Shown here: positions 3,553-18,083 of the stretch, piece after piece
Layout of the letters: each line of letters opens with the position of its first letter
How positions within the stretch are numbered: the first letter of the stretch is position 1
DNA from: a virus
Taxonomy: Duplodnaviria > Caudoviricetes
Reading direction: 5' to 3' (one strand)
Virus record (IMG/VR): IMGVR_UViG_3300023105_001410
Coordinates: 1 to 37,840 of that record
Length of the DNA: 37,840 nt
Position numbers and translations under genes: made by a program
The notes under the pieces: generated by a model
The model's input: the letters and a program-made list of their open reading frames with translations, nothing else
Told to the model about the DNA's origin: nothing
The model's database searches: none

Positions 3553-5208
3553 TCAAATGTATTTATTTTTATTAAGCTGCTCTCCCCACTGTTTGAATGA
3601 ATAGAGTTTTGCATCAGTAGTATGAATATAATCAGAATTGTTTTGATGTTTTACAACACCTTGTCCTGAAACTATATCACCGTCTCTGTATGCAAAGGGT
3701 TTTTGTATTGTTACATCTATGTATTCTCCATACCCTATACCTAGAGTAAGAAATGTAACCCAGCGTCCGTTCTTGCCACGAAACACTCTTCCATTTGCTA
3801 TTACACCTGCAAACTCTACACGCTCAAGCCATTGTTGTCGAACATAGCATCCTGGAATAAATCCGTGTTGCCACCAACCTGGTTTTGTGTCTATTCCTTT
3901 GCGATGTGCTTCACACTGATATACCCATGCTTTGTATGATCCTTGACAGTGTTTGAGGTTGGCTCTCCAGAATGCTTCTGGATTGTGTGCTTTTTGGTAG
4001 GCCAAGGCCCATATGAGCCTTCCAAGATTAACTGCGTGAGCTCTGCATAACCCAAAGCCGCTAAGTTCTTGCAGTGCAGCCATAGCCTCTTGCTTACGCG
4101 GATTGTTACCCAGTCTTTCAACAAATTCCAATATCTTTTCATCATTCTTTTTAGCAAATGCTCTCCTATACATATCTGCTTCGTACATATCTACACCAAT
4201 GATGTTTGATATAATATCAATAGCATCATCTTCAAACACTACTGAGTCTTGTACAACTTCTTGTGACCAGTCTTGGAACATGGCTGCTTTCTGTCTGCCA
4301 CTTAGTGCTACTGGTCTTATCATTGCTGTTGCAAACACACAGTCGTAAACTGATGTAGGCTGTATGGCACGGAACAATCTGCGCATAGCAGGGCTTTCTC
4401 CCTGGGTGACGCCTAGTACATCGCCTCTACATAGTAACGCTGCTGTACGGTCGTCGTATGCAGGATAAGACGCCAATTCAGTATCTGGGTCTATCTCCAT
4501 AAGTTGTGATAAACCTCTGTTTGCTAGTATGTCTACCTTGAGATGTTCAAGGTCTTCTACTTCATATTTGTCTAGTAGTATTTGGTTGTCTGCTGATATA
4601 AGTGATTTTGGTAATTGCCTTGTAAACATTACGATGCCTCCACAGTGTTTGGATATTGCTCTTTTCTTTCCCATAAGTTTGCGTTCAATCCGTTTTGCTT
4701 CTTTAGGATCAACGCCAACTGACTCGTATGAGAAGTTGCGTGGAAGATTACCTGTGGCACCGAGTCGCTTTGCAGCTTCTCTTCGTGCACTTTTTTCTTT
4801 GTAGGTTACGTAGTTGCTCAACCGAGCAGTCTTACCTGGCCATTTGCGGAATATCCTTTCCATGACTTCCGTCTGTCGATGATGTTCAAAGTCTATATCC
4901 ACGTCAGGTAAGTCGTCCCTCAAAGGGTTCATAAACCGTGCCACAGGTATGTTCCACTCTACCGGGTCTACATCTGTAATACCCAATAGATAGCACACAA
5001 GACTGCTGCCCGCAGAGCCTCTTGTCATATGAGTAAGGTCTGTGGTTAGGTCAATGATGTCACAAATTTGAAGGAAGTAATCAGTGAATCGCTGAGAGAG
5101 AATGAGCTCAAATTCTTCAGCTAAACGATTTTGATATTCGTCTCCTGGTGGGATAGGCCTCTTGAATCTATCTAATAGCCTTTGTATATTTTCTAAATCT
5201 GTTGCCAT
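3553..5208 (-). CDS. dnaE: Family C DNA polymerase (DnaE/DnaE2-like), lacking the PHP domain
   Basis: RGSAGSSLVCYLLGITDVDP, RFMNPLR..LPDVDIDF (D102/D104), KHCGG, KVDIL (D226), MIRP, GFGLCRAHA, C-terminal OB-like segment. Confidence 0.92.
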   Translation of the reverse strand: MATDLENIQRLLDRFKRPIPPGDEYQNRLAEEFELILSQRFTDYFLQICDIIDLTTDLTHMTRGSAGSSLVCYLLGITDVDPVEWNIPVARFMNPLRDDLPDVDIDFEHHRQTEVMERIFRKWPGKTARLSNYVTYKEKSARREAAKRLGATGNLPRNFSYESVGVDPKEAKRIERKLMGKKRAISKHCGGIVMFTRQLPKSLISADNQILLDKYEVEDLEHLKVDILANRGLSQLMEIDPDTELASYPAYDDRTAALLCRGDVLGVTQGESPAMRRLFRAIQPTSVYDCVFATAMIRPVALSGRQKAAMFQDWSQEVVQDSVVFEDDAIDIISNIIGVDMYEADMYRRAFAKKNDEKILEFVERLGNNPRKQEAMAALQELSGFGLCRAHAVNLGRLIWALAYQKAHNPEAFWRANLKHCQGSYKAWVYQCEAHRKGIDTKPGWWQHGFIPGCYVRQQWLERVEFAGVIANGRVFRGKNGRWVTFLTLGIGYGEYIDVTIQKPFAYRDGDIVSGQGVVKHQNNSDYIHTTDAKLYSFKQWGEQLNKNKYI

Positions 5209-5277: not shown

Positions 5278-6705
5278 TTATTCATCTCCTAAATTATTGA
5301 GGAATTGTCTTAGTTTTGTTGAATCTGTTTGGGCACGTATCTTACCTACAGTATCACCTTCAGTTGGATCTTCACGTTGTTGTCCTTCTTCTATAGGTCC
5401 ACCACTACTGCGTTTGATTTGATCAAATACTGTTGACTTACGTTTGTTAAACTCTTGATACTCTTCATCCTCTCCTAAGTCGCGAATACGTAGACTATCT
5501 ACGTCAAACTCTAAATCAATCTTTTGTCCAACGCCACTTGAACTTCTAGTCTTCATTAACTGTATTTGATAGCGTCCACGCTCACGCATAGCTCTACTTG
5601 TAAAGATACCTATGAGGTTGTCCGCCGTGTTAATTTTCGATATACCGCCACTAATATGACTATGGTCAAATTCAATCTCCTCTACTGAACTTCTGTTCAA
5701 CTGCGATGCTGTTACAAAGATACAGTTTAGTTCCATTGCTAGGTTGCGTAGTTCTTCTGAAACATACTTGTCTTTAACAAACAAGTTTTCTGCGCTAATT
5801 TTTGCTGCGATAGGATGCATAAGATCTAAGTAATCAATTAACAGCACATCTACTTTGCGTCCTGTCTTGATTTCATACTCTTTTAAATACGCTCTAATGT
5901 CATTTGCGTTCTTGCCGGTGGGCATGTACTTGACCTGAAATGCACCTGACTTCTTACCAATCATTTTAACTTTCATTTCAACATCGTCAATGCTCTTAAA
6001 CACATCACGACTTGGAATATCTGTGGTCATTGAATCAAGACGCATACTAACTAAGTTCTCTGAAAGTTCAAAAGTCAAATACAGTACATTCATGCCTGCT
6101 AAACACCAGTTCACACCCATGTTTGCTAAGAACAAACTCTTACCTGAACCAGAGCCACCTGCAAAGATGTTTAATTCGCCTCTGTTGAATCCGCCAAACA
6201 ATTTCTTGTCTAAGCTGGGCCAACCTGTGCTTACTTGTCCGTTCTTGTCTTTGATTGCTTCTAGACGTGCCCTTGGATCTGCAAAGTAATCTGTGCCTAG
6301 ATCTTTTTGCAAGCCAATCTGTACTGCTTTCTTAACCAAATCCTCCACCGGGCCATACTCCCCTTTTTCCAGCAAATCTGCGCTAGTAAGGATGGCCGCT
6401 TCCAAAGCCTTGTGTCTGGAGAATGTTTCAAACTCCTGAAGTAGCCAGTCATAGTGATTCTCCTGTAGTTGCCCTGGGTCTTTAAGATCAATACTTGTTG
6501 CAGCATTTATCATATCAAATGTAGGCAAACTGTTATGTTCTTCTACATAATCTTTTAAAAACTTTGCAGTATCTTGTAATCGTCTATCAAATGTTTTAGG
6601 ATCAAATACACCCTGACAGCGCACAAATGATTCTGCATCTGTCATAAACATTTCTAGATATACTTTCTGTATATCGTATCCGTAATCTGTGTTCTGTCTA
6701 GTCAT
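5278..6705 (-). CDS. gp41: Replicative DnaB-like helicase (T4 gp41 family)
   Basis: Walker A GGSGSGKS, LIDYLDLM, TASQLNR, KINTAD, MKTR. Confidence 0.93.
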   Translation of the reverse strand: MTRQNTDYGYDIQKVYLEMFMTDAESFVRCQGVFDPKTFDRRLQDTAKFLKDYVEEHNSLPTFDMINAATSIDLKDPGQLQENHYDWLLQEFETFSRHKALEAAILTSADLLEKGEYGPVEDLVKKAVQIGLQKDLGTDYFADPRARLEAIKDKNGQVSTGWPSLDKKLFGGFNRGELNIFAGGSGSGKSLFLANMGVNWCLAGMNVLYLTFELSENLVSMRLDSMTTDIPSRDVFKSIDDVEMKVKMIGKKSGAFQVKYMPTGKNANDIRAYLKEYEIKTGRKVDVLLIDYLDLMHPIAAKISAENLFVKDKYVSEELRNLAMELNCIFVTASQLNRSSVEEIEFDHSHISGGISKINTADNLIGIFTSRAMRERGRYQIQLMKTRSSSGVGQKIDLEFDVDSLRIRDLGEDEEYQEFNKRKSTVFDQIKRSSGGPIEEGQQREDPTEGDTVGKIRAQTDSTKLRQFLNNLGDE

Positions 6706-8401: not shown

Positions 8402-8565
8402 TTATATATGAATGGATCCTGTTCTCTTAATTTTTTAATTTTGCGTCTAAATTCTATTTCGTCTTTGATCTTATGATATGGCCATGATATCACAGTCCAT
8501 ACAAATTTTAATATATTACATATTAAATTATACAATTTTTTTAAATATTTTTTAATGAAAACCAT
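8398..8565 (-). CDS. Small basic protein (55 aa) ending ...LREQDPFIYK; absent from the ORF track
   Basis: Manual translation MVFIKKYLKKLYNLICNILKFVWTVISWPYHKIKDEIEFRRKIKKLREQDPFIYK; fills the gap after primase; TGA overlaps the next ATG. Confidence 0.65.
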   Translation of the reverse strand: MVFIKKYLKKLYNLICNILKFVWTVISWPYHKIKDEIEFRRKIKKLREQDPFIYK

Positions 8566-9551
8566 GTTTTTGCTCTCAACTTTATTTTAACTTCTGATTC
8601 TTCAGCAGCTGATACAATGCTGTGTAATGTATATAGCCTTCCGTATATCTTTACTGCGTCATTTATGTCTTTACAATCCTTTTGCCAGTCTGGCATACTA
8701 ATTTGCCATCCTAGTTGCATAGCCTTCATCATCATTTGCCTACCAGGATAATCTCTATCAGGTACATAAATTATTGGTTTATTTAATTTTTTAAGTAGCA
8801 TTTCTTGCTGTTTAGATATGCTTGCACCTAACAATGCACAACCTTCAACGTGTATTGCATCCAACGGACCTTCACACACTATGCAGAAAGCTTTGTTATA
8901 TCTTTGTTCGTCTAAATTAAACACAAACCCTGGTTGGACTTCTTGCATGTATTTTGGCTTATCTACATACTTTTGACTTTTGTCCCATTGTATAACTCTA
9001 GTAATATACCCTACTATGCGACCTTCATAATAAAATGGTACAATTAGTTTATCTTTGTATGTAGGATGTGGTGACCAATAATAATCTGTATCGTCTAAAT
9101 TTAAACATCTGTCTGCCATGTATTCTAGCACAGCCAACAAATCATCGTTGACTTCTTTAACATCTGCAATCTTTACAGCCTGTGGTGGCAAGTCTACAGT
9201 TTCAAATTGAGGTATCTGAACTTTAAATTCTTTAATATCTGCATTTTCATTTTGTCGTAAAATATCAAAAGAAATCTTTGTGATATCATCATCTGATATA
9301 TTAATCCACTGCATAAACAGTTTCATATTACGACTAAGAGGACGTCCAGGTTGCCAACTTGCTTTGAAACCACAGTTAAAGCAATGATAACTAATTCCGT
9401 CATCGGCTTGTATAATACCGCCACGTTTTCTTGTGTCAGGCTTATGTCCTCTTTCATAGCAGCAAGGTGCATTAAAGGAAGTCCAGCCACTAGGAGTTTT
9501 TTTCCTATTTGCCGGAATCGAGAACATAATTGTATCAACTAGTAAGCTCAT
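8541..9551 (-). CDS. gp61: DNA primase (T4 gp61-like)
   Basis: Zn motif FNAPCC...YHCFNCG; PKYM; TOPRIM CEGPLDA and PDRD; KDINDA. Confidence 0.88.
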   Translation of the reverse strand: MSLLVDTIMFSIPANRKKTPSGWTSFNAPCCYERGHKPDTRKRGGIIQADDGISYHCFNCGFKASWQPGRPLSRNMKLFMQWINISDDDITKISFDILRQNENADIKEFKVQIPQFETVDLPPQAVKIADVKEVNDDLLAVLEYMADRCLNLDDTDYYWSPHPTYKDKLIVPFYYEGRIVGYITRVIQWDKSQKYVDKPKYMQEVQPGFVFNLDEQRYNKAFCIVCEGPLDAIHVEGCALLGASISKQQEMLLKKLNKPIIYVPDRDYPGRQMMMKAMQLGWQISMPDWQKDCKDINDAVKIYGRLYTLHSIVSAAEESEVKIKLRAKTWFSLKNI

Positions 9552-9594: not shown

Positions 9595-9708
9595 TTAGTA
9601 AATAAGTCCATATGTTATACACCATAATTCTAAAACTACTTTGTATGTCATATAAACACCTAGTGTGCCTAAAACAAAATAGCTAGAACGTTTTACGATA
9701 TCCAACAT
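9595..9708 (-). CDS. Small membrane peptide (37 aa); absent from the ORF track
   Basis: GGAGG SD 7 nt before ATG; MLDIVKRSSYFVLGTLGVYMTYKVVLELWCITYGLIY; hydrophobic. Confidence 0.6.
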   Translation of the reverse strand: MLDIVKRSSYFVLGTLGVYMTYKVVLELWCITYGLIY

Positions 9709-11086
9709 AAATGTTCCTCCCTCCTAATTCATAATTAGGAATAATTGTATATTTGTTATCAAAAATATCTTGTATAGTTAAAAACCAATCGCCAATATTA
9801 TAATTAAAATCGGCAGTGTTTACACCTATATCTGTCCATGTGTAGCTAAACCATTTGTAGTTTATCTTTGCTCTGTATTCTGCTACGTAAGGTTGATCCG
9901 AATCTGTGTAACCAAGTGTCAACCAATTGTTGCTGTAGCGTAGTCCTTGTGTGCTGTATGTGCCTGTGTTTACAAACTGTGCTAACTCCCAATCGTAGTT
10001 TATTCCTTCTTTGAAGTCATATCTAAATGCTGAGAAGTTACCATAACCTATATCAACACCCACAGACTCCTCTGGATCTAATAATGGATTAGCTGCTACC
10101 CAGGCATCGCCTTCCATTTCATAGTCAGTAGGACGTCTATAACCTGAGCCAATGCCCAATGAAAACTTGTCTACTTGTACGCCTACACGCACAACAGCGT
10201 GTCCGTCTATTGCTCGTGCTGAAAACTGTAGCTCGTCAAAGGGCTGATACAGTGCATATGCTTCTTCACCGTTGTTATATGTTACACCTATAGTCCAATC
10301 GTTGTATGTATTACGTGCATCAAAATACACGTTGTCTGCGTCTGATCTGTATGTCCTTTCGCCATTAGTGTAGAAGTCTGTGTTATTAAATGAGTATCCC
10401 AATGTAATATTATCGTTACGTATGGACACGTTGCCTGTCATGCCTCGTTGCTCACAATCATCTGTGCCCCAGCAGTCATCATAATCGTAGCTGTAGTCTG
10501 TTACTGCTATTGATACATAGTCATCCTTGTACCGTGCTGTGACGTTCTCGTATAGGTCTCGTTCGTTGTTTGTAGTCATTGCAGAGCCATTGTCACCATA
10601 GGCATAGGAGAAGTTCATACGTTTAGAGGAGGCTGATAGTAAAGCTGAATTAGTACCTGCCCTGATAGCATATCCTGGTTTGATATCATCTTCAATGAAT
10701 ACAGTTCCTCCTAGTGATCCTGAACCATACAATGTGCTGTTAGCACCATGTGATACTGTTACACGTTCCTGTCCAGTAGGAATAATATGTCCGAAGTCAT
10801 ACCAGCCTGTGCTAGGATCATTAACAGGCATACCGTTACGATATACTGTAGTGTGAATAGTTTGTGCTCCTCGCTCACGGAAACCAGCGAAGCCACCCAT
10901 GCCACCTTGAGTAAATGGCTGGTCGATACTTATTGTTTCTATAAGTGAAAAATCTAATTGTGTATTAGTTTCTATTGTGGTAGTCTTTGTACCGAGCACT
11001 ACAATTTCTTCAATTTCTTGTGCTTGTAGTGACACACAAAAAAAGGCAGCAAGTAAACCTGCCGCCGCGTTTTTATTTTTAATCAT
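9683..11086 (-). CDS. TonB-dependent outer-membrane receptor (BtuB-like), compact
   Basis: Signal peptide, TonB-box-like EEIVV, plug motifs RG...HTTVYRNGMPVND and HGANSTLYGSGSLGG, NPLLDPEES, C-terminal GRNIYVGYRKTF beta-signal. Confidence 0.85.
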   Translation of the reverse strand: MIKNKNAAAGLLAAFFCVSLQAQEIEEIVVLGTKTTTIETNTQLDFSLIETISIDQPFTQGGMGGFAGFRERGAQTIHTTVYRNGMPVNDPSTGWYDFGHIIPTGQERVTVSHGANSTLYGSGSLGGTVFIEDDIKPGYAIRAGTNSALLSASSKRMNFSYAYGDNGSAMTTNNERDLYENVTARYKDDYVSIAVTDYSYDYDDCWGTDDCEQRGMTGNVSIRNDNITLGYSFNNTDFYTNGERTYRSDADNVYFDARNTYNDWTIGVTYNNGEEAYALYQPFDELQFSARAIDGHAVVRVGVQVDKFSLGIGSGYRRPTDYEMEGDAWVAANPLLDPEESVGVDIGYGNFSAFRYDFKEGINYDWELAQFVNTGTYSTQGLRYSNNWLTLGYTDSDQPYVAEYRAKINYKWFSYTWTDIGVNTADFNYNIGDWFLTIQDIFDNKYTIIPNYELGGRNIYVGYRKTF

Positions 11087-11926: not shown

Positions 11927-12295
11927 ATGTTAACTAAAGATATACAAGATAACTTTCCATTTTTAAGCGTAGTAACTTACGGTGGCGCTGAATATATCGG
12001 CATCATTATAAATCAAGATTCTACAGTAACAAGCATGTATGTTTATACAGACTTACGTTCACAAGACGAACAAACAAAGTTTTTAGAGTTAGGTGATACA
12101 TGGTGGTGGGAGTCAAATAGACTTATCCCAATTAATATTTTCCTAAAAAATGAAATGATCCCTTTTAGATATAGTATTGTTACTATGAATACAAAAGATG
12201 TACGTGTTACAATAGGACCATGTGTCAACTTAGGCAATCTTAGTGTAAAAAGAGTAAAAAGAAAAAGTGTGCAATTAGTTCGCAAACCTAAGTAA
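11927..12295 (+). CDS. Hypothetical protein; plus-strand gene within a minus-strand block
   Basis: Fills the gap between minus-strand genes; WWWESNR motif; CTAAATAT at 11888-11895 upstream. Confidence 0.75.
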   Translation: MLTKDIQDNFPFLSVVTYGGAEYIGIIINQDSTVTSMYVYTDLRSQDEQTKFLELGDTWWWESNRLIPINIFLKNEMIPFRYSIVTMNTKDVRVTIGPCVNLGNLSVKRVKRKSVQLVRKPK

Positions 12296-12908
12296 AATAT
12301 TTTCCGTACTCTTCGTAGTCTTTTTTATAAATTTCTTTTATTAAAGGTACGGCCTTTTCCTTATAGATATTATTACATTTTTTTTCCTTTTTTGGCGTAG
12401 TATTTGCATGAATCAACGGAACATCTACACCACTAATTTCTTTAATCAAAGGAATAAATTCTGTGTTTATATTTTTACTGTCTAATATGCGTGTGTAGTC
12501 AGTAGTCGTGTGGTAATCTAACGCCAAATAAATAGGCATCGTATGCCAGTATATATCCTCTAAATTTGATTTAATATACTCTAGATTAATTACAAAATCC
12601 AAAAATGTTTTTATTTTAGGATTGCTAAGTCTAAATTTCTGATTCTCTATCTTCTTTAGATAATGGTTGACATATACACTAAATAATCTGTCTACTGGAT
12701 TTCTTATAATTGCTATTCTATGTGGAAAATCAGTGACTTTCATAGATAGTGGATCGAATGTTAAAGCTTGGGCTAATATCTTATTTCGCCCATGTTCTAC
12801 CATTTTCAATAGAGGATAATATGCTGCATGCAAAGCCGTTGAACTTGCGCATTTTAATACAGTGGCAAGTAATAATGTATTTCCATTTTGATAAGTTATT
12901 TTGTACAT
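12288..12908 (-). CDS. Sulfotransferase family 2 protein
   Basis: KCASST (5'-PSB-like) and IRNPVDRLFSVY (3'-PB-like) motifs; YKKDYEEYGKY terminus. Confidence 0.72.
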   Translation of the reverse strand: MYKITYQNGNTLLLATVLKCASSTALHAAYYPLLKMVEHGRNKILAQALTFDPLSMKVTDFPHRIAIIRNPVDRLFSVYVNHYLKKIENQKFRLSNPKIKTFLDFVINLEYIKSNLEDIYWHTMPIYLALDYHTTTDYTRILDSKNINTEFIPLIKEISGVDVPLIHANTTPKKEKKCNNIYKEKAVPLIKEIYKKDYEEYGKYFT

Positions 12909-12918
12909 TTACAATTTT

Positions 12919-13470
12919 TCAAATTTCACAAATTAAATTCATGTGTACAACTACTACCATTGCATAACTTATAGCATGTGCTTTCTTAAAATAATATTCA
13001 CCATTTGCCGGCTTCGTCCAAACTTCTTTCATTATCTCCGTCCATGTCTTCCCAATCAAATGTCTCTTCGCGGGTCGTATCATAGCAAGGACGGCAGCCA
13101 ATTGCTCCACGGAAGTAGGGCAAGTCTGTTTCAGAATTGATGTGTGGCCATTTAAATGAAATAGTTGATCCACGAACTCTTCGTGTTGTAAAAGTTCCCA
13201 TAACGGTTCTCTTTCCATAAGCTTTTGTAAGTGTTGTTCATCTTTTACATCTTTGTATATACTTACATTCAAGAAGTCAAGTTTAAAATAACCTCTATCT
13301 TCAGCGGTTTTGTAATTAATAGTAGACAAATTATCCACAGGATTATGCGGAATTTCAGTTACATACACTCCTGTATTATGTTTTTTTTCTGAGCTAATAG
13401 ATGCAACACGATGATGTATTTTTGACAATATATCATCTCTATCTGCAAAATCTATGTCAATATCAGGCAA
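12919..13470 (-). CDS. Minimal DnaE-family catalytic core ('mini-DnaE', 183 aa)
   Basis: MPDIDIDF, KHNTGVY, GYFKLDFLN, LAMIRP, YFKKAHAISYA in canonical DnaE order. Confidence 0.85.
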   Translation of the reverse strand: MPDIDIDFADRDDILSKIHHRVASISSEKKHNTGVYVTEIPHNPVDNLSTINYKTAEDRGYFKLDFLNVSIYKDVKDEQHLQKLMEREPLWELLQHEEFVDQLFHLNGHTSILKQTCPTSVEQLAAVLAMIRPAKRHLIGKTWTEIMKEVWTKPANGEYYFKKAHAISYAMVVVVHMNLICEI

Positions 13471-13960
13471 AATTTCTCTCCAACTTACGAGCTTTTTTAG
13501 TAGCCATGTCCCATTTTAATTTTGATACTCTGTCTTTAAATGTGATGCCTTGTAAATGATCGTATTCATGCAAGTAACACTTAGCACTATATCCCTCAAT
13601 TTTTACAACTTGTTCTTGTAAGTTTTCGTTGTACCATTTAGCTAGTATTTCTTTAGGTCTTTTAATTTTAACAAAAATATTAGGAAAACTTAAACAACCT
13701 TCAACATCTACTGTTGTATCTTTTGTATATTGTAGTATAGTTGGATTGATGCAAATTGTAGAATTTTCTTTGCTATCTCCAAACACAAATACTTGTGCAT
13801 CTAGTCCTACTTGATTTGCACTCAATCCTATACCGTTACTAGATAACATTAGATCAATCATTTGTTCCTTTAGTTCAATAGGATCAAATCCTGGATCTTC
13901 AAGATTTACATCTTTGACTTTTTTATCTAAAAACGGATCTGGATAATAAACTAAATTCAT
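13463..13960 (-). CDS. def: Peptide deformylase
   Basis: GIGLSANQVG, EGCLS, HEYDHLQG. Confidence 0.95.
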   Translation of the reverse strand: MNLVYYPDPFLDKKVKDVNLEDPGFDPIELKEQMIDLMLSSNGIGLSANQVGLDAQVFVFGDSKENSTICINPTILQYTKDTTVDVEGCLSFPNIFVKIKRPKEILAKWYNENLQEQVVKIEGYSAKCYLHEYDHLQGITFKDRVSKLKWDMATKKARKLERNFA

Positions 13961-14370
13961 AACTTGCCTTCTTGTCTTAACTGTGCTCTTATTTGTGTTG
14001 CACTAATATTATGTATCTCTTCACCTAAGTCATGTTGTGTAAATGTATAACCTACACCACGACCGTAGCTAATGTCAACTATGTTTGGTACAAATATTAT
14101 AACATATTCTTCGCCTTCTGTAAAGCCATGATTTGCTAATCCTTGTATGATATTTTGTGTAACTGTTTCTACATCAAATGGATTATCATCTTGTTTTGCT
14201 GTACGTCCGCCGCCAGCATCTTGGCCCACAATGCCTCCGACATCTCGGATCATAATACATACTTGACCTGTTTCTAATAGTGCTTTCTTAAATAGTGCTG
14301 TGTGGCCATCGTGCCACGGCTGCCATCTGCCCAGCATTTGTGCAGTAGGCTTTTTCCAATCAAATGCCAT
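13957..14370 (-). CDS. HxGH nucleotidyltransferase (cytidylyltransferase-like)
   Basis: GRWQPWHDGH, NPF, ISATQIR. Confidence 0.78.
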   Translation of the reverse strand: MAFDWKKPTAQMLGRWQPWHDGHTALFKKALLETGQVCIMIRDVGGIVGQDAGGGRTAKQDDNPFDVETVTQNIIQGLANHGFTEGEEYVIIFVPNIVDISYGRGVGYTFTQHDLGEEIHNISATQIRAQLRQEGKL

Positions 14371-14926
14371 TTATAATTTCCTCCACTAAAGGATATAATT
14401 TTTGTTGTCTTAATAATTTTTTTGCTATTCCGTGTCCTGTATCTGGTATAACTGTTTTGAAAATATTAGGAGCGTCTGGTATTAAATTTAAATGTTTCAT
14501 TTCGTAATATTCGTCGCCTTGAAAAAAATGGTATTGTGTAGTGTCATTAAATTGTAATTCTGTAAACTGCCATTCTGTTCCGTAGTAGGCAAACTGAGGC
14601 CATTTCTCTTTTACCCAAGGTATTACTCTTGCACTTACACTATAAACTGCTGCAAAAGATATAACAGCATCTACTCGTGTAACTTGAGCAAAGCAGTTTG
14701 CATTAAATGCACCTAAACTATTGCCAAGTGCAATGATCTTTTTGTAGTCTTTTACTTTGTCTATTAGCCCATCTACGTCCACATCATTAAAAAAACTTCT
14801 TTGGTGATCAATAAAGTGTAAACTATCAACGTGTGTCCAGCGTTTAATACTTTGAAATTCTTCTCCAGGAGGCTTTCCACGTTCCGTACCTACTCCCGCA
14901 AAACATACAACAATAGTATCATTCAT
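14360..14926 (-). CDS. Alpha/beta hydrolase-like protein
   Basis: GNSLG nucleophile elbow; C-terminal GHG. Confidence 0.55.
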   Translation of the reverse strand: MNDTIVVCFAGVGTERGKPPGEEFQSIKRWTHVDSLHFIDHQRSFFNDVDVDGLIDKVKDYKKIIALGNSLGAFNANCFAQVTRVDAVISFAAVYSVSARVIPWVKEKWPQFAYYGTEWQFTELQFNDTTQYHFFQGDEYYEMKHLNLIPDAPNIFKTVIPDTGHGIAKKLLRQQKLYPLVEEIINGI

Positions 14927-15128
14927 TATTTAAACCAAATTTAATATGTTTATACCATATTCTTTCATGTCCATAATACAGTACAAATTTAATTATTAGA
15001 TCTGTAACAAAAACGGCTCCTACTGCTTTTGGAGGCAATCCGAAAAACCAAGCAATAAATGCTGTCGTTATACTTGCAATTATACGCCAGGTTGTTGCTT
15101 TTGCTAAATGCCTACTTCTTGATACCAT
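14919..15128 (-). CDS. DUF2061-like small membrane protein
   Basis: RHLAKATTWRIIAS and LYYGHERIW motifs; a family commonly found next to cysC. Confidence 0.75.
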   Translation of the reverse strand: MVSRSRHLAKATTWRIIASITTAFIAWFFGLPPKAVGAVFVTDLIIKFVLYYGHERIWYKHIKFGLNNE

Positions 15129-15543
15129 TACGCTCCATAAAAGTTGTAACTACTGGAACTAATGCTTCGTGTGTATCAGTAAACCATTTTGAAACTCTAT
15201 AATCCCAATGTGCAGGCTCTACAAACATCTTGTTTGTATCTTCAAATCTACCTTCGTTGATTGTGTCCATCCACACAGTAAAGTCTGGGTTAAATTCCAT
15301 ACGTGCTTGTTCTGTAGGGCATACAAAGTCTGCCACAGCAACTTTGCCCGCCATTACAACACCATCAGCTAGATATCGCATACGTGCTGCTTGTCGCATA
15401 CGACCTTCTGGTGTAAAATCCCAGTCGTCATAATGTTTGCGAACAGCATCTGCATTAATGTGTATTCCGCTAATTAAATCAGCAAACGGTTTTGCCAATG
15501 TAGTTTTTCCACTACCTGGCAATCCGAATATCAATATTTTCAT
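15112..15543 (-). CDS. cysC: Adenylyl-sulfate (APS) kinase
   Basis: GLPGSGKTTLA, NADAVR, DFTPEGR.RQ, DFVCP. Confidence 0.78.
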   Translation of the reverse strand: MKILIFGLPGSGKTTLAKPFADLISGIHINADAVRKHYDDWDFTPEGRMRQAARMRYLADGVVMAGKVAVADFVCPTEQARMEFNPDFTVWMDTINEGRFEDTNKMFVEPAHWDYRVSKWFTDTHEALVPVVTTFMERNGIKK

Positions 15544-16238
15544 AACTTAGATTCCTTTGCAACGTCTTTAACTAATTGCACATCATTTGGCAATCTTTTA
15601 AAACGTAGTGCCCAATGTTCTGGATTAATAACATGATAAACTAATTCTAATTGTTCATCATTAAATTTACTTAGCATTTCTTTTCCGCTTGCACAATTAA
15701 GTATGAGCCAAGGCGATATCTTTCCGTCCTTAATATCCCACACTGCTCTATTTAAACTTACATGATAAAAATAATGATTCCACGGAGCAGTCTTGTCTTC
15801 TGCCCAATCCATCATTGTTTTTACTGAACGTTCAAGAGCCGTTGCTACATCTTCTTTAAGTATAAGTTCGAGTGCATACTTTTCATACATTGTTTCCTTG
15901 CACCAATGGTCTAGCTTGACACCGCTTGTGACCACATAATCGATATATCGTTCAGGATATAAAGGTTTAACATTACTGATAAAACTACCAAACTTGACAA
16001 AAGCATTATAGTAAGGAGATGAACAAAAGTCTTCGTAAGTTTTATCTTTTTTAGCACCTGCGCTTAGTTTATAAAATCTTTGGAATGCATAAAATCCGTG
16101 ACGTACACGTTTTTCATCTTTTTGTAAAGCCCTACGTTTCTTTTCGCACATATGCGCTGCAAGCGTTTTTTCTCTTACATAACCACTACCACAGTATTCG
16201 CATTTATATGGTTTTTCAGAGTTTGGCATCGATTCCAT
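15540..16238 (-). CDS. Hypothetical protein with N-terminal C2H2/C2HC-type zinc finger (start 16238 or 16229)
   Basis: EKPYKCEYCGSGYVREKTLAAHMC. Confidence 0.65.
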   Translation of the reverse strand: MESMPNSEKPYKCEYCGSGYVREKTLAAHMCEKKRRALQKDEKRVRHGFYAFQRFYKLSAGAKKDKTYEDFCSSPYYNAFVKFGSFISNVKPLYPERYIDYVVTSGVKLDHWCKETMYEKYALELILKEDVATALERSVKTMMDWAEDKTAPWNHYFYHVSLNRAVWDIKDGKISPWLILNCASGKEMLSKFNDEQLELVYHVINPEHWALRFKRLPNDVQLVKDVAKESKL

Positions 16239-16680
16239 ATTCTTCAGCCAACTCTTTGAGTTCTTTTTTTGTAAGTATTCTAGCAAGTAATTCTACCTCA
16301 TCTTGTTTCATATTAGGATATATCTGTTCGATAACTTTGATGCCTTTGCCATTGTCTGCACCTTTTTTCTTAAAACCTATCCAAGGATGAAACTCATTCT
16401 TGCCTGTGTTACCGCATTGACATAACAAGTACCACTGTAGTTTTGCTTCTTTGTTACCTAGTACTGCCCAGTTCTTGTTATAGTATTCATTTGTTTTAAA
16501 CACAGCAAGTTCTTGTTTTTCACGTGAACCTTTTACACTACTCATATATCTGTTGAGATTCCAAAGGTCGCCTTTGATCTCTTTCTGTCCTTCTTCACCT
16601 GCTGCATCATAAAGTTGACGCATTCCGCCATCTAGCGCAGGAATCATTTCTTTGAATAAATCAATGTGTTTGTTGGGCAT
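16216..16680 (-). CDS. Probable clamp-loader small subunit (T4 gp62-like)
   Basis: Size and pattern LNRYMS...NE...LQW..L...FHPWI.KK...Y resemble gp62. Confidence 0.5.
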   Translation of the reverse strand: MPNKHIDLFKEMIPALDGGMRQLYDAAGEEGQKEIKGDLWNLNRYMSSVKGSREKQELAVFKTNEYYNKNWAVLGNKEAKLQWYLLCQCGNTGKNEFHPWIGFKKKGADNGKGIKVIEQIYPNMKQDEVELLARILTKKELKELAEEYGIDAKL

Positions 16681-17353
16681 TCCACGTCTCTACATCTTCA
16701 GGAGTATTAATCTCAGTACCATTAAATTGTACACTCAAACAACCAATTTGCCAACCGTTTTTTAACCAGCGTAGTTGTTCAAGTTTTTCTACACGTTCTT
16801 CTTTTTCAATTTGCATATGGTTATAGCATTGAAGTGCATTCTTAGTGTAGCCATAAACACCTAAGTGCCATAAGCCATACCCTGTCATACCTCTACCAAA
16901 CCAAAGTGCAGAATCTCCTCCACGTACCATTTTTACTGAGCTAGGATCATTTTGTTTTTCTTCTGGCATATCAGTGTACACTGTGCTAATTTGGTAATGA
17001 TTGCCTAAACTAAACACACACTTTTCAACCATTTCTTGTGTTACGTCTGGCATATCACCTTGCACATTTATAAAGTAATCGTAGTCATCAAATTTTCTAC
17101 TGTACACAGCACCTGCACATCTTTCTGTGCCGTTTTCATAATTAGCAGTATCTATATAAACGCCTACGCCTGATGCTTGTGCTGCCTGTGCAATTAGCTT
17201 ATGGTCTGTAAGTACATATGTGTCATAGCCAAAATCTTTACATTTCTCTGCCACAGTTTGTATCATTGTTTTGCCGTTTAGCATTGTAAGCGGCTTTCCT
17301 GGGAAGCGAGTGCTTCCGTATCTAGCCGGTATAAGAATAGCTGATAATTTCAC
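16661..17353 (-). CDS. kdsB: CMP-Kdo synthetase (likely GTG start at 17353)
   Basis: IPARYGSTRFPGKPL, GTER, INVQGD.P, HLGVYGY, EKLEQLRWL, INTPED. Confidence 0.93.
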   Translation of the reverse strand: MKLSAILIPARYGSTRFPGKPLTMLNGKTMIQTVAEKCKDFGYDTYVLTDHKLIAQAAQASGVGVYIDTANYENGTERCAGAVYSRKFDDYDYFINVQGDMPDVTQEMVEKCVFSLGNHYQISTVYTDMPEEKQNDPSSVKMVRGGDSALWFGRGMTGYGLWHLGVYGYTKNALQCYNHMQIEKEERVEKLEQLRWLKNGWQIGCLSVQFNGTEINTPEDVETWNAQQTH

Positions 17354-18083
17354 GTACTGTCCTTTCAAAGTCTTCTAGTCGTAACATATTAGGTCCGTCA
17401 CTTGGTGCATTGTCTGGGTCAGCATGTACTTCTAGAAAGAAATTCCTAATCCCCAAAGCACTAGCTGCACGAGCAAGGCCAGGAACGTAATCCCTATTCC
17501 CGCCGCTACTATCTCCTGCGCCGCCTGGCTTTTGTACTGAGTGCGTGGCGTCCAGTACAATAGGACAATCAAAGTTATCAAGCATATAGTTAAGGCCGGT
17601 GAAATCAACAACCAAAGTATTATATCCAAAACTAGTACCCCTTTCTGTAATCCAAACTTCTTTTGCACCTTTAGTTTTACTTAGTATACCTTTGACATCC
17701 CAGGGTGCAAGGAACTGTCCTTTCTTAATATTTACAATACAGTCTGTTGCACAGGCTGCTTCAATTAAATCTGTTTGTCTACAAAGGAATGCAGGAATTT
17801 GCAGCACATCTACAATATGTGTAAGGTATTGTATTTGATCAACTTCGTGTACATCTGTAAGTGTCTTTACATCTAACTCGTCTTTCAATGCAAGTATGTC
17901 GTGTACAAACGGGTGTAGTCCTACACCTCGTTTGCCGTTTACGCTTGTACGATTAGCTTTGTCAAAACTTGCTTTAAAATAATATTCAATGCCGTATTTG
18001 TCACATACACGTTTACACTCACGAGCAATCTCTGCACTCTGTGCTAGTGTTTCGTGTTGGCAAGGTCCTGCAATAATTCTCAT
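17322..18083 (-). CDS. kdsA: Kdo-8-phosphate synthase
   Basis: IAGPC, KASFDKANRTS, QIPAFLCRQTDL, KKGQF, ERG, DATHSVQ, SDGP. Confidence 0.96.
   Translation of the reverse strand: MRIIAGPCQHETLAQSAEIARECKRVCDKYGIEYYFKASFDKANRTSVNGKRGVGLHPFVHDILALKDELDVKTLTDVHEVDQIQYLTHIVDVLQIPAFLCRQTDLIEAACATDCIVNIKKGQFLAPWDVKGILSKTKGAKEVWITERGTSFGYNTLVVDFTGLNYMLDNFDCPIVLDATHSVQKPGGAGDSSGGNRDYVPGLARAASALGIRNFFLEVHADPDNAPSDGPNMLRLEDFERTVREIISYSYTG

Follow-up and report, generated by a model that had tools for sequence, protein, structure and literature searches.

The stretch of viral DNA analysed here (37,840 nt, hereafter the window) covers about 10% of the genome of a T4-like phage, and its minus strand encodes at 12919..13470 a protein of only 183 aa that looks like the catalytic core of a family C DNA polymerase. 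This raises the question whether so small a gene is a decaying copy, a complete enzyme or one part of a polymerase whose remainder is encoded elsewhere, and what such an enzyme might do beside a family B replicase.

The 183-residue catalytic core

The reading frame is intact and starts with TTG, not ATG; a GGAG Shine-Dalgarno-like site (13478..13481, minus strand) lies 7 nt 5' of this codon, within the end of a peptide deformylase gene. The motifs that an earlier note on this DNA had read in the frame are present in the order given there: PDIDIDF at residue 2, KHNTG at 30, KLDFL at 63, MIRP at 130 and FKKAHA at 161. A Pfam search with the frame returned no match, and a single-sequence search of solved structures gave only hits with E values of at least 1.1. 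The protein matches PHROG_11778 over its full length (5e-65). It also finds 96 of 50,697 phage records, with coverage of 80% or more in every case, and 421 of 1.84 billion representatives clustered at 50% identity, so that a chance reading frame can be discarded. The phages among the matches listed include RaK2, GAP32, PA5oct, Atu_ph07 and XacN1-type phages with their kin, at 39-58% identity, and a 90%-identity collection holds at least 8000 matches.

Profile alignment with E. coli DnaE, whose reference sequence was taken from an annotated record, places D3/D5 on D401/D403, K63/D65 on K553/D555, R132-P133 on R640-P641 and H165 on H760. The D3/D5 block alone scores weakly in this alignment; the structural alignment also begins at E. 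coli residues 401-402. D3, D5 and D65 are thereby placed on the three catalytic aspartates, as the earlier note had proposed. On the minus strand, the DxDxD motif formed by D3, D5 and D7 lies at 13450..13464, K63-L-D65 at 13276..13284, R132-P133 at 13072..13077 and H165, equivalent to the residue described as a presumptive sugar gate in the available text of PMC8485763, at 12976..12978. Spacings between these motifs are short. From the proline of the first motif to the KH pair there are 28 aa, compared with 86 in a 551-aa DnaE of the same window, much as the earlier note had counted, and 110 in E. coli; D5 and D65 are 60 residues apart versus 152 in full-length DnaE, and R132 and H165 33 versus 120, with about 85 residues of the fingers, including the R709/R710 helix, missing after R132-P133. 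The protein therefore lacks the thumb and the greater part of the middle fingers, in line with what that note had proposed, and by the same spacings it is without the full fingers and the PHP domain that a replicative alpha subunit has.

Modelled with AlphaFold, residues 2-183 reach a pLDDT of 96.4, and the best eight Foldseek rows of this model are Pol III alpha chains only. The model aligns end to end with PolC (3f2b; Z 9.5, rmsd 3.6, 178 residues) and with residues 401-778 of E. coli DnaE at Z 7.2, whereas the first unrelated row has Z 4.4. The predicted fold is thus that of DnaE/PolC minus the thumb and the middle fingers, and the Pol-beta-like palm with three catalytic aspartates, a trait of family C, is present by Foldseek as well as by profile and structural alignment.

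Conservation was assessed in 82 sequences of 175-235 aa covering the query, drawn from the best 150 of the 421 representatives; the 68 left out were mostly partial matches, together with one repeat artefact and one fusion, and owing to the length filter the set itself leans to uniform sizes. D3, D5, D7, K63, D65, R132 and P133 are invariant in all 82 of these divergent full-length representatives, and H31 and H165 are each kept in 81. The start codon stands directly before P-D-I-D in 77 of the 80 IMG/VR loci of this gene, the other three starting one codon before D-I-D. Nei-Gojobori estimates of dN/dS, from the 407 of 2556 pairs whose dS fell in the range 0.02 to 1.5, have a median of 0.134 and a maximum of 0.295. 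The gene is thus confirmed as real and under purifying selection, as the earlier note had suspected from its catalytic residues, and the signs of decay named there (variable endpoints, lost aspartates, dN/dS near 1) are not seen among the homologs.

A second, shifted frame of 67 codons on the same strand (12998..13201), in the second half of the gene, is possibly an overprinted gene. An ATG followed by at least 55 open codons occurs there in 64 of 75 distinct sequences, a count that is not independent because the sequences are related, compared with a mean of 0.45 and a maximum of 3 under synonymous resampling; in RaK2, Atu_ph07 and Paride, stop codons end the frame early. Tests for amino-acid constraint in this frame were negative or saturated, and since divergence at four-fold sites is not lower in the overlapped region (0.64 vs 0.59), the frame shows stop avoidance and not constraint at the protein level.

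A separate partner and its natural fusions

The earlier note also suggested that the protein may be half of an intein-free split polymerase whose GRGS-bearing partner ends just before the PDxD position. This proved right in related genomes, and it is no discovery of ours, since the same was published from sequence by Iyer et al. (2021; PMC7824862). According to the available text of that study, group 2.2 jumbo phages combine a family B replicase with a minimal Pol III alpha, which is divided between two genes far apart, one for an N-terminal unit that binds NTP and one for a C-terminal unit that binds Mg and the template, and which perhaps serves one strand or repair. Judged by its sequence, the 183-aa gene is to be assigned to the C-terminal unit (hereafter C-half) of this split enzyme of group 2.2 (RaK2/PA5oct-type) jumbo phages. 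No bench study or activity assay of the split minimal Pol III alpha was found in the literature, nor was any per-gene timing for PA5oct.

A PF07733 search recovered the front part as a separate gene in four of five records (RaK2, Atu_ph07, Paride and G001), and a protein search found it in two of five incomplete contigs, G003 and G006, the latter of which had been chosen through its N-half; the three contigs lacking it all carry the C-half and are all incomplete. G003 and G001, with C-halves 80% and 74% identical to that of the window, both have a separate partner gene. The halves lie closest together in RaK2, at about 34 kb, and farthest apart in G003, at about 227 kb. A short GRGS-bearing frame of the kind that the earlier note proposed to look for thus exists in related genomes, but it is absent from the 38-kb window (about 10% of a genome), where the partner profile matches only the 551-aa DnaE, and we therefore infer, rather than see, a partner in this genome.

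The partner measures 169-185 aa in the four genes read directly and 169-187 aa in 86 loci, in all of which the stop falls within one or two residues of EF[LM]x. This end aligns with E. coli R390-N393 and the C-half begins at M399-P400, so that only about five linker residues have been lost; an intein-sized extension at the break was found in neither half (77/80 C-half and 86/86 N-half loci). All 65 aligned partners carry GVGRGS unchanged, and the median dN/dS is 0.188 (1313 of 1770 pairs). The partner matches 93 phage records (E 1e-9) compared with 96 for the C-half; judged by host tallies and not record by record, the two halves co-occur, with equal numbers for Escherichia (34), Pseudomonas (11), Erwinia (8), Salmonella (8), Xanthomonas (4) and Yersinia (4), and with 10 vs 11 for Klebsiella. 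The partner gene adjoins a GroES-like gene, outside the replication module.

The available text of PMC4374717 assigns R362-G363-S364 to the nucleotide pocket and names R390, R396 and R709/R710 among the contacts of dATP; K543 is named there too. Several of these residues are changed in the phage pair. The position of R390 is acidic in all 65 partners (E in 61, D in 4), nothing at the split corresponds to R396, the helix with R709/R710 is missing, and K543 aligns with Y53 of the C-half. Two near-invariant lysines are new, K135 (93%) and K162 (99%), and they could compensate for the lost contacts. A literature search found no paper that deals with R390/R396 together with the thumb.

The strongest evidence in this analysis that both halves would act as one enzyme comes from three natural fusions of 375-376 aa (P0229, P0271 and P0272, from ENA and Logan assemblies), in which the halves follow each other in DnaE order, with a short linker taking the place of the NPERVS of DnaE. 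P0229 matches PHROG_11127 and then PHROG_11778; the other two are 78-81% identical to it. In a tree of 45 N-half rows the fusions form one branch (100/100) within a clade of 25 rows (99/97), the other 22 being stand-alone, and this nested position suggests, given the midpoint root, that the fusion of the halves is secondary. The model of P0229 aligns with DnaE at Z 16.7 (rmsd 4.1, 257 residues). Its pLDDT is below 50 at residues 183-200 and 206-269, the palm being of low confidence because the C-half rows are out of register in the mixed alignment, and the model thus supports the fold assignment only, not the interface or the geometry of the active site. The first 75 residues of P0229, which correspond to the N-terminus of the partner, matched no DnaE structure in this comparison, which barely covers them. 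No fusion locus was found among the IMG/VR contigs, so that the fusions are without genomic context.

Genomic setting and possible role

In the window the C-half gene accompanies UvsW, SSB, DnaB and primase, replication genes of the T4-like group 2, as well as UvsX and UvsY. Its fixed neighbours are a convergent gene of PHROG_11637 (11924..12295, plus strand), downstream in 61/61 loci with at least 3 kb of downstream sequence, and a zinc-finger-like protein of PHROG_11058 (15540..16286, minus strand), upstream in 81/81 loci; atlas searches gave no name for either. Of the 61 loci whose downstream sequence extends to 3 kb or more, 60 retain the DnaG-type primase (8541..9551, minus strand), and of the 24 in which it reaches 9 kb or more, 23 retain the DnaB-type helicase (5278..6705, minus strand). 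UvsW belongs to this module in 41 of the 42 loci that have a flank of 9 kb or more. The primase looks intact and keeps its acidic motifs.

Other genes of the region are variable. The peptide deformylase gene (13463-13960, minus strand), which overlaps the start of the C-half gene, is found in 27 of 81 loci and the sulfotransferase gene after it (12288-12908, minus strand) in 2 of 81; both are passengers and not fixed partners. Upstream of the C-half gene (13957-15543, minus strand) are small genes for an APS-kinase-like protein, a hydrophobic protein of 69 aa and a nucleotidyltransferase-like protein of 137 aa, the first occurring in 27 and the last in 25 of the 81 loci. A TonB-dependent-receptor-like gene with a plug domain (9683-11086, minus strand) is inserted before the primase and is found in none of the 81 related loci. 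A cytidylyltransferase gene beside one of the DAHP/KDO8P-synthase family (16661-18083, minus strand) suggests phage-encoded sugar activation. The frame at 16216-16680, whose motifs made us guess at a clamp-loader small subunit, gave no match in a pairwise test with the gene that adjoins RFC in Slicko01.

Eight of nine related records encode a family B polymerase, with the three core motifs intact in the three that were read; the record without one (G002) is 73% complete and has no N-half either. None is annotated in the window, which is about 10% complete. In Atu_ph07, Paride, PA5oct and Slicko01 the family B match splits over two open frames. Alishewanella phages of 141 kb also carry the halves, the C-half being read in Slicko01 (L185, 6875-7486) and the N-half in Slickus01 (L186, 2249-2761), and the system is therefore not confined to jumbo genomes; Slicko01 has a family B polymerase as well.

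These observations led us to the reading, to which as a whole we give a probability of roughly 0.6, that the pair is a split, distributive DNA polymerase which works beside the family B replicase. The C-half would supply the three metal ligands and the H760-equivalent sugar gate, the N-half would contribute the R362-G363-S364 nucleotide pocket, and the two together would rebuild a dNTP-selective active site. Such a heterodimer might add a few deoxynucleotides to primer ends with low processivity, after which the family B polymerase would take over from the extended primer. Formation of a heterodimer is very probable and two-metal nucleotidyl transfer by the pair highly probable; the incorporation of dNTPs on a template is likely. 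Primer extension with a hand-off, which is argued by analogy with Bacillus subtilis DnaE acting for PolC, is the weakest step, and we would give it somewhat less than even odds. Distributive synthesis is predicted since the thumb and the C-terminal domains are missing, and in this polymerase family their loss is expected to leave a distributive enzyme. Primer extension with hand-off is preferred because the pair has core status and its C-half gene lies beside primase and helicase genes, whereas an acidic residue in the place of R390, the absence of both R396 and the R709/R710 helix, the tyrosine (Y53) aligned with K543 and the location of the partner outside the module count against a hand-off polymerase. 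Moreover, family B polymerases of the T4 type need no help to extend RNA primers, so that the need for a hand-off is not evident.

The same distributive heterodimer might instead serve repair or recombination, by filling gaps, bypassing lesions or extending invading 3' ends, and not act on every primer. The lack of PHP domain and thumb would suit short-patch synthesis, UvsW is held in the module in 41 of 42 loci, UvsX, UvsY and SSB are encoded in the window, and repair is one of the options named in the available text of PMC7824862. However, near one-to-one retention of the halves throughout the group and the fixed linkage with primase and helicase fit a core role better, and we regard a role limited to repair as unlikely.

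The changed dATP contacts keep a further alternative in play, namely that a DnaE palm has been repurposed for untemplated or non-DNA chemistry such as tailing, nucleotidylation of proteins or small molecules, or primer synthesis. The charge reversal at R390 (65/65), the loss of R396, the R709/R710 helix and the thumb, the new lysines K135 and K162 and the 75-residue N-terminus of the partner that matches no DnaE structure would all agree with this, but the sugar-gate histidine is kept in 81 of 82 sequences, K63 and the RP pair are invariant, and the gene lies within a replication module whose adjacent primase keeps its acidic motifs. The primer-making variant, which the earlier note had considered, is weakened in particular by this histidine and by the intact-looking DnaG-type primase; repurposing in general survives as an improbable reading. 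It is very improbable that the 183-aa protein is a complete stand-alone enzyme: although it is predicted to fold alone at a pLDDT of 96, has all three aspartates and lies in a window without a partner gene, it lacks the GRGS nucleotide pocket that the partner supplies, and both genes co-occur and are naturally fused.

The 551-aa PHP-less DnaE (3553-5208, minus strand) lies beside the helicase gene; one member of its cluster is named error-prone DNA polymerase, and its best phage match, at 35% identity, is in an uncultured 484-kb phage. The earlier note had compared the 183-aa gene with this paralogue and had read it as a precise deletion with kept catalytic residues. The two proteins share only 24% identity over 148 aa, and the longer one is accessory (7/81 loci, 5/24 loci with at least 9 kb downstream and 0/5 large contigs), so it is not the parent, and a derivation from it is ruled out. 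Pseudogene decay is ruled out by the conservation and selection data. That the gene is a decaying duplicate of its neighbour, as the presence of both in one window and their common motifs might suggest, can practically be dismissed in view of this distance and distribution, the fixed endpoints, and a dN of 0.085 against a dS of 0.894 between the C-halves of the window and of locus L004.

Returning to the primer-extending pair, we may tentatively imagine a T4-type replisome in which a two-gene family C primer-extender of about 360 residues, with a triphosphate pocket rewired through the acidic R390 position and the new lysines, works for the family B replicase; the natural 375-aa fusions would be this enzyme in a single chain and might be the smallest functional polymerases of family C, and another small gene would be overprinted on the C-half in the aquatic clade that the present sequences represent. 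Taken with all its parts, this picture is rather doubtful. If active, the split pair would define the least machinery needed by a polymerase of the bacterial replicative type and would explain why family C and family B polymerases are kept together in a large group of phages. The natural fusions make an activity assay a one-gene experiment.

Comparison with known split and full-length polymerases

Like DnaE and PolC (E. coli; G. kaustophilus, 3f2b), the C-half has a Pol-beta-like palm with three aspartates and equivalents of K553, the RP pair and H760, and it matches these enzymes over its whole length. Unlike them, the phage enzyme would consist of two chains of 183 and about 175 aa and not of one chain of 1160 aa; the pair is without PHP domain, thumb, middle fingers and C-terminal domains, and its R390 position is acidic. 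In cyanobacteria, dnaE is also carried in two distant genes, whose products are spliced by intein halves into one full-length chain; the phage split shares the two distant genes, but intein halves are absent at its break.

Bacillus subtilis DnaE briefly extends primers before handing them to PolC, as described in the available text of PMC3664799. The role proposed here would be alike in that a DnaE-type enzyme performs brief primer extension beside primase and helicase and then hands off, but the B. subtilis enzyme is of full length and delivers to a family C replicase, whereas the phage pair would deliver to one of family B.

The closest system is the split Pol III alpha of group 2.2 phages (PHROG_11778, with its partner PHROG_11127), which has the same C-terminal unit, catalytic core and metal-binding aspartates, so that the 183-aa gene adds an example to a family already in print. 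The available text of PMC7824862 describes group 2.2 phages without other Pol III domains, whereas the genome of the window also carries the accessory 551-aa DnaE. What the present analysis adds to that text is that the halves occur naturally fused, that the R390 position is acidic, that an open frame is nested in the C-half gene and that phages of 141 kb are among the carriers.
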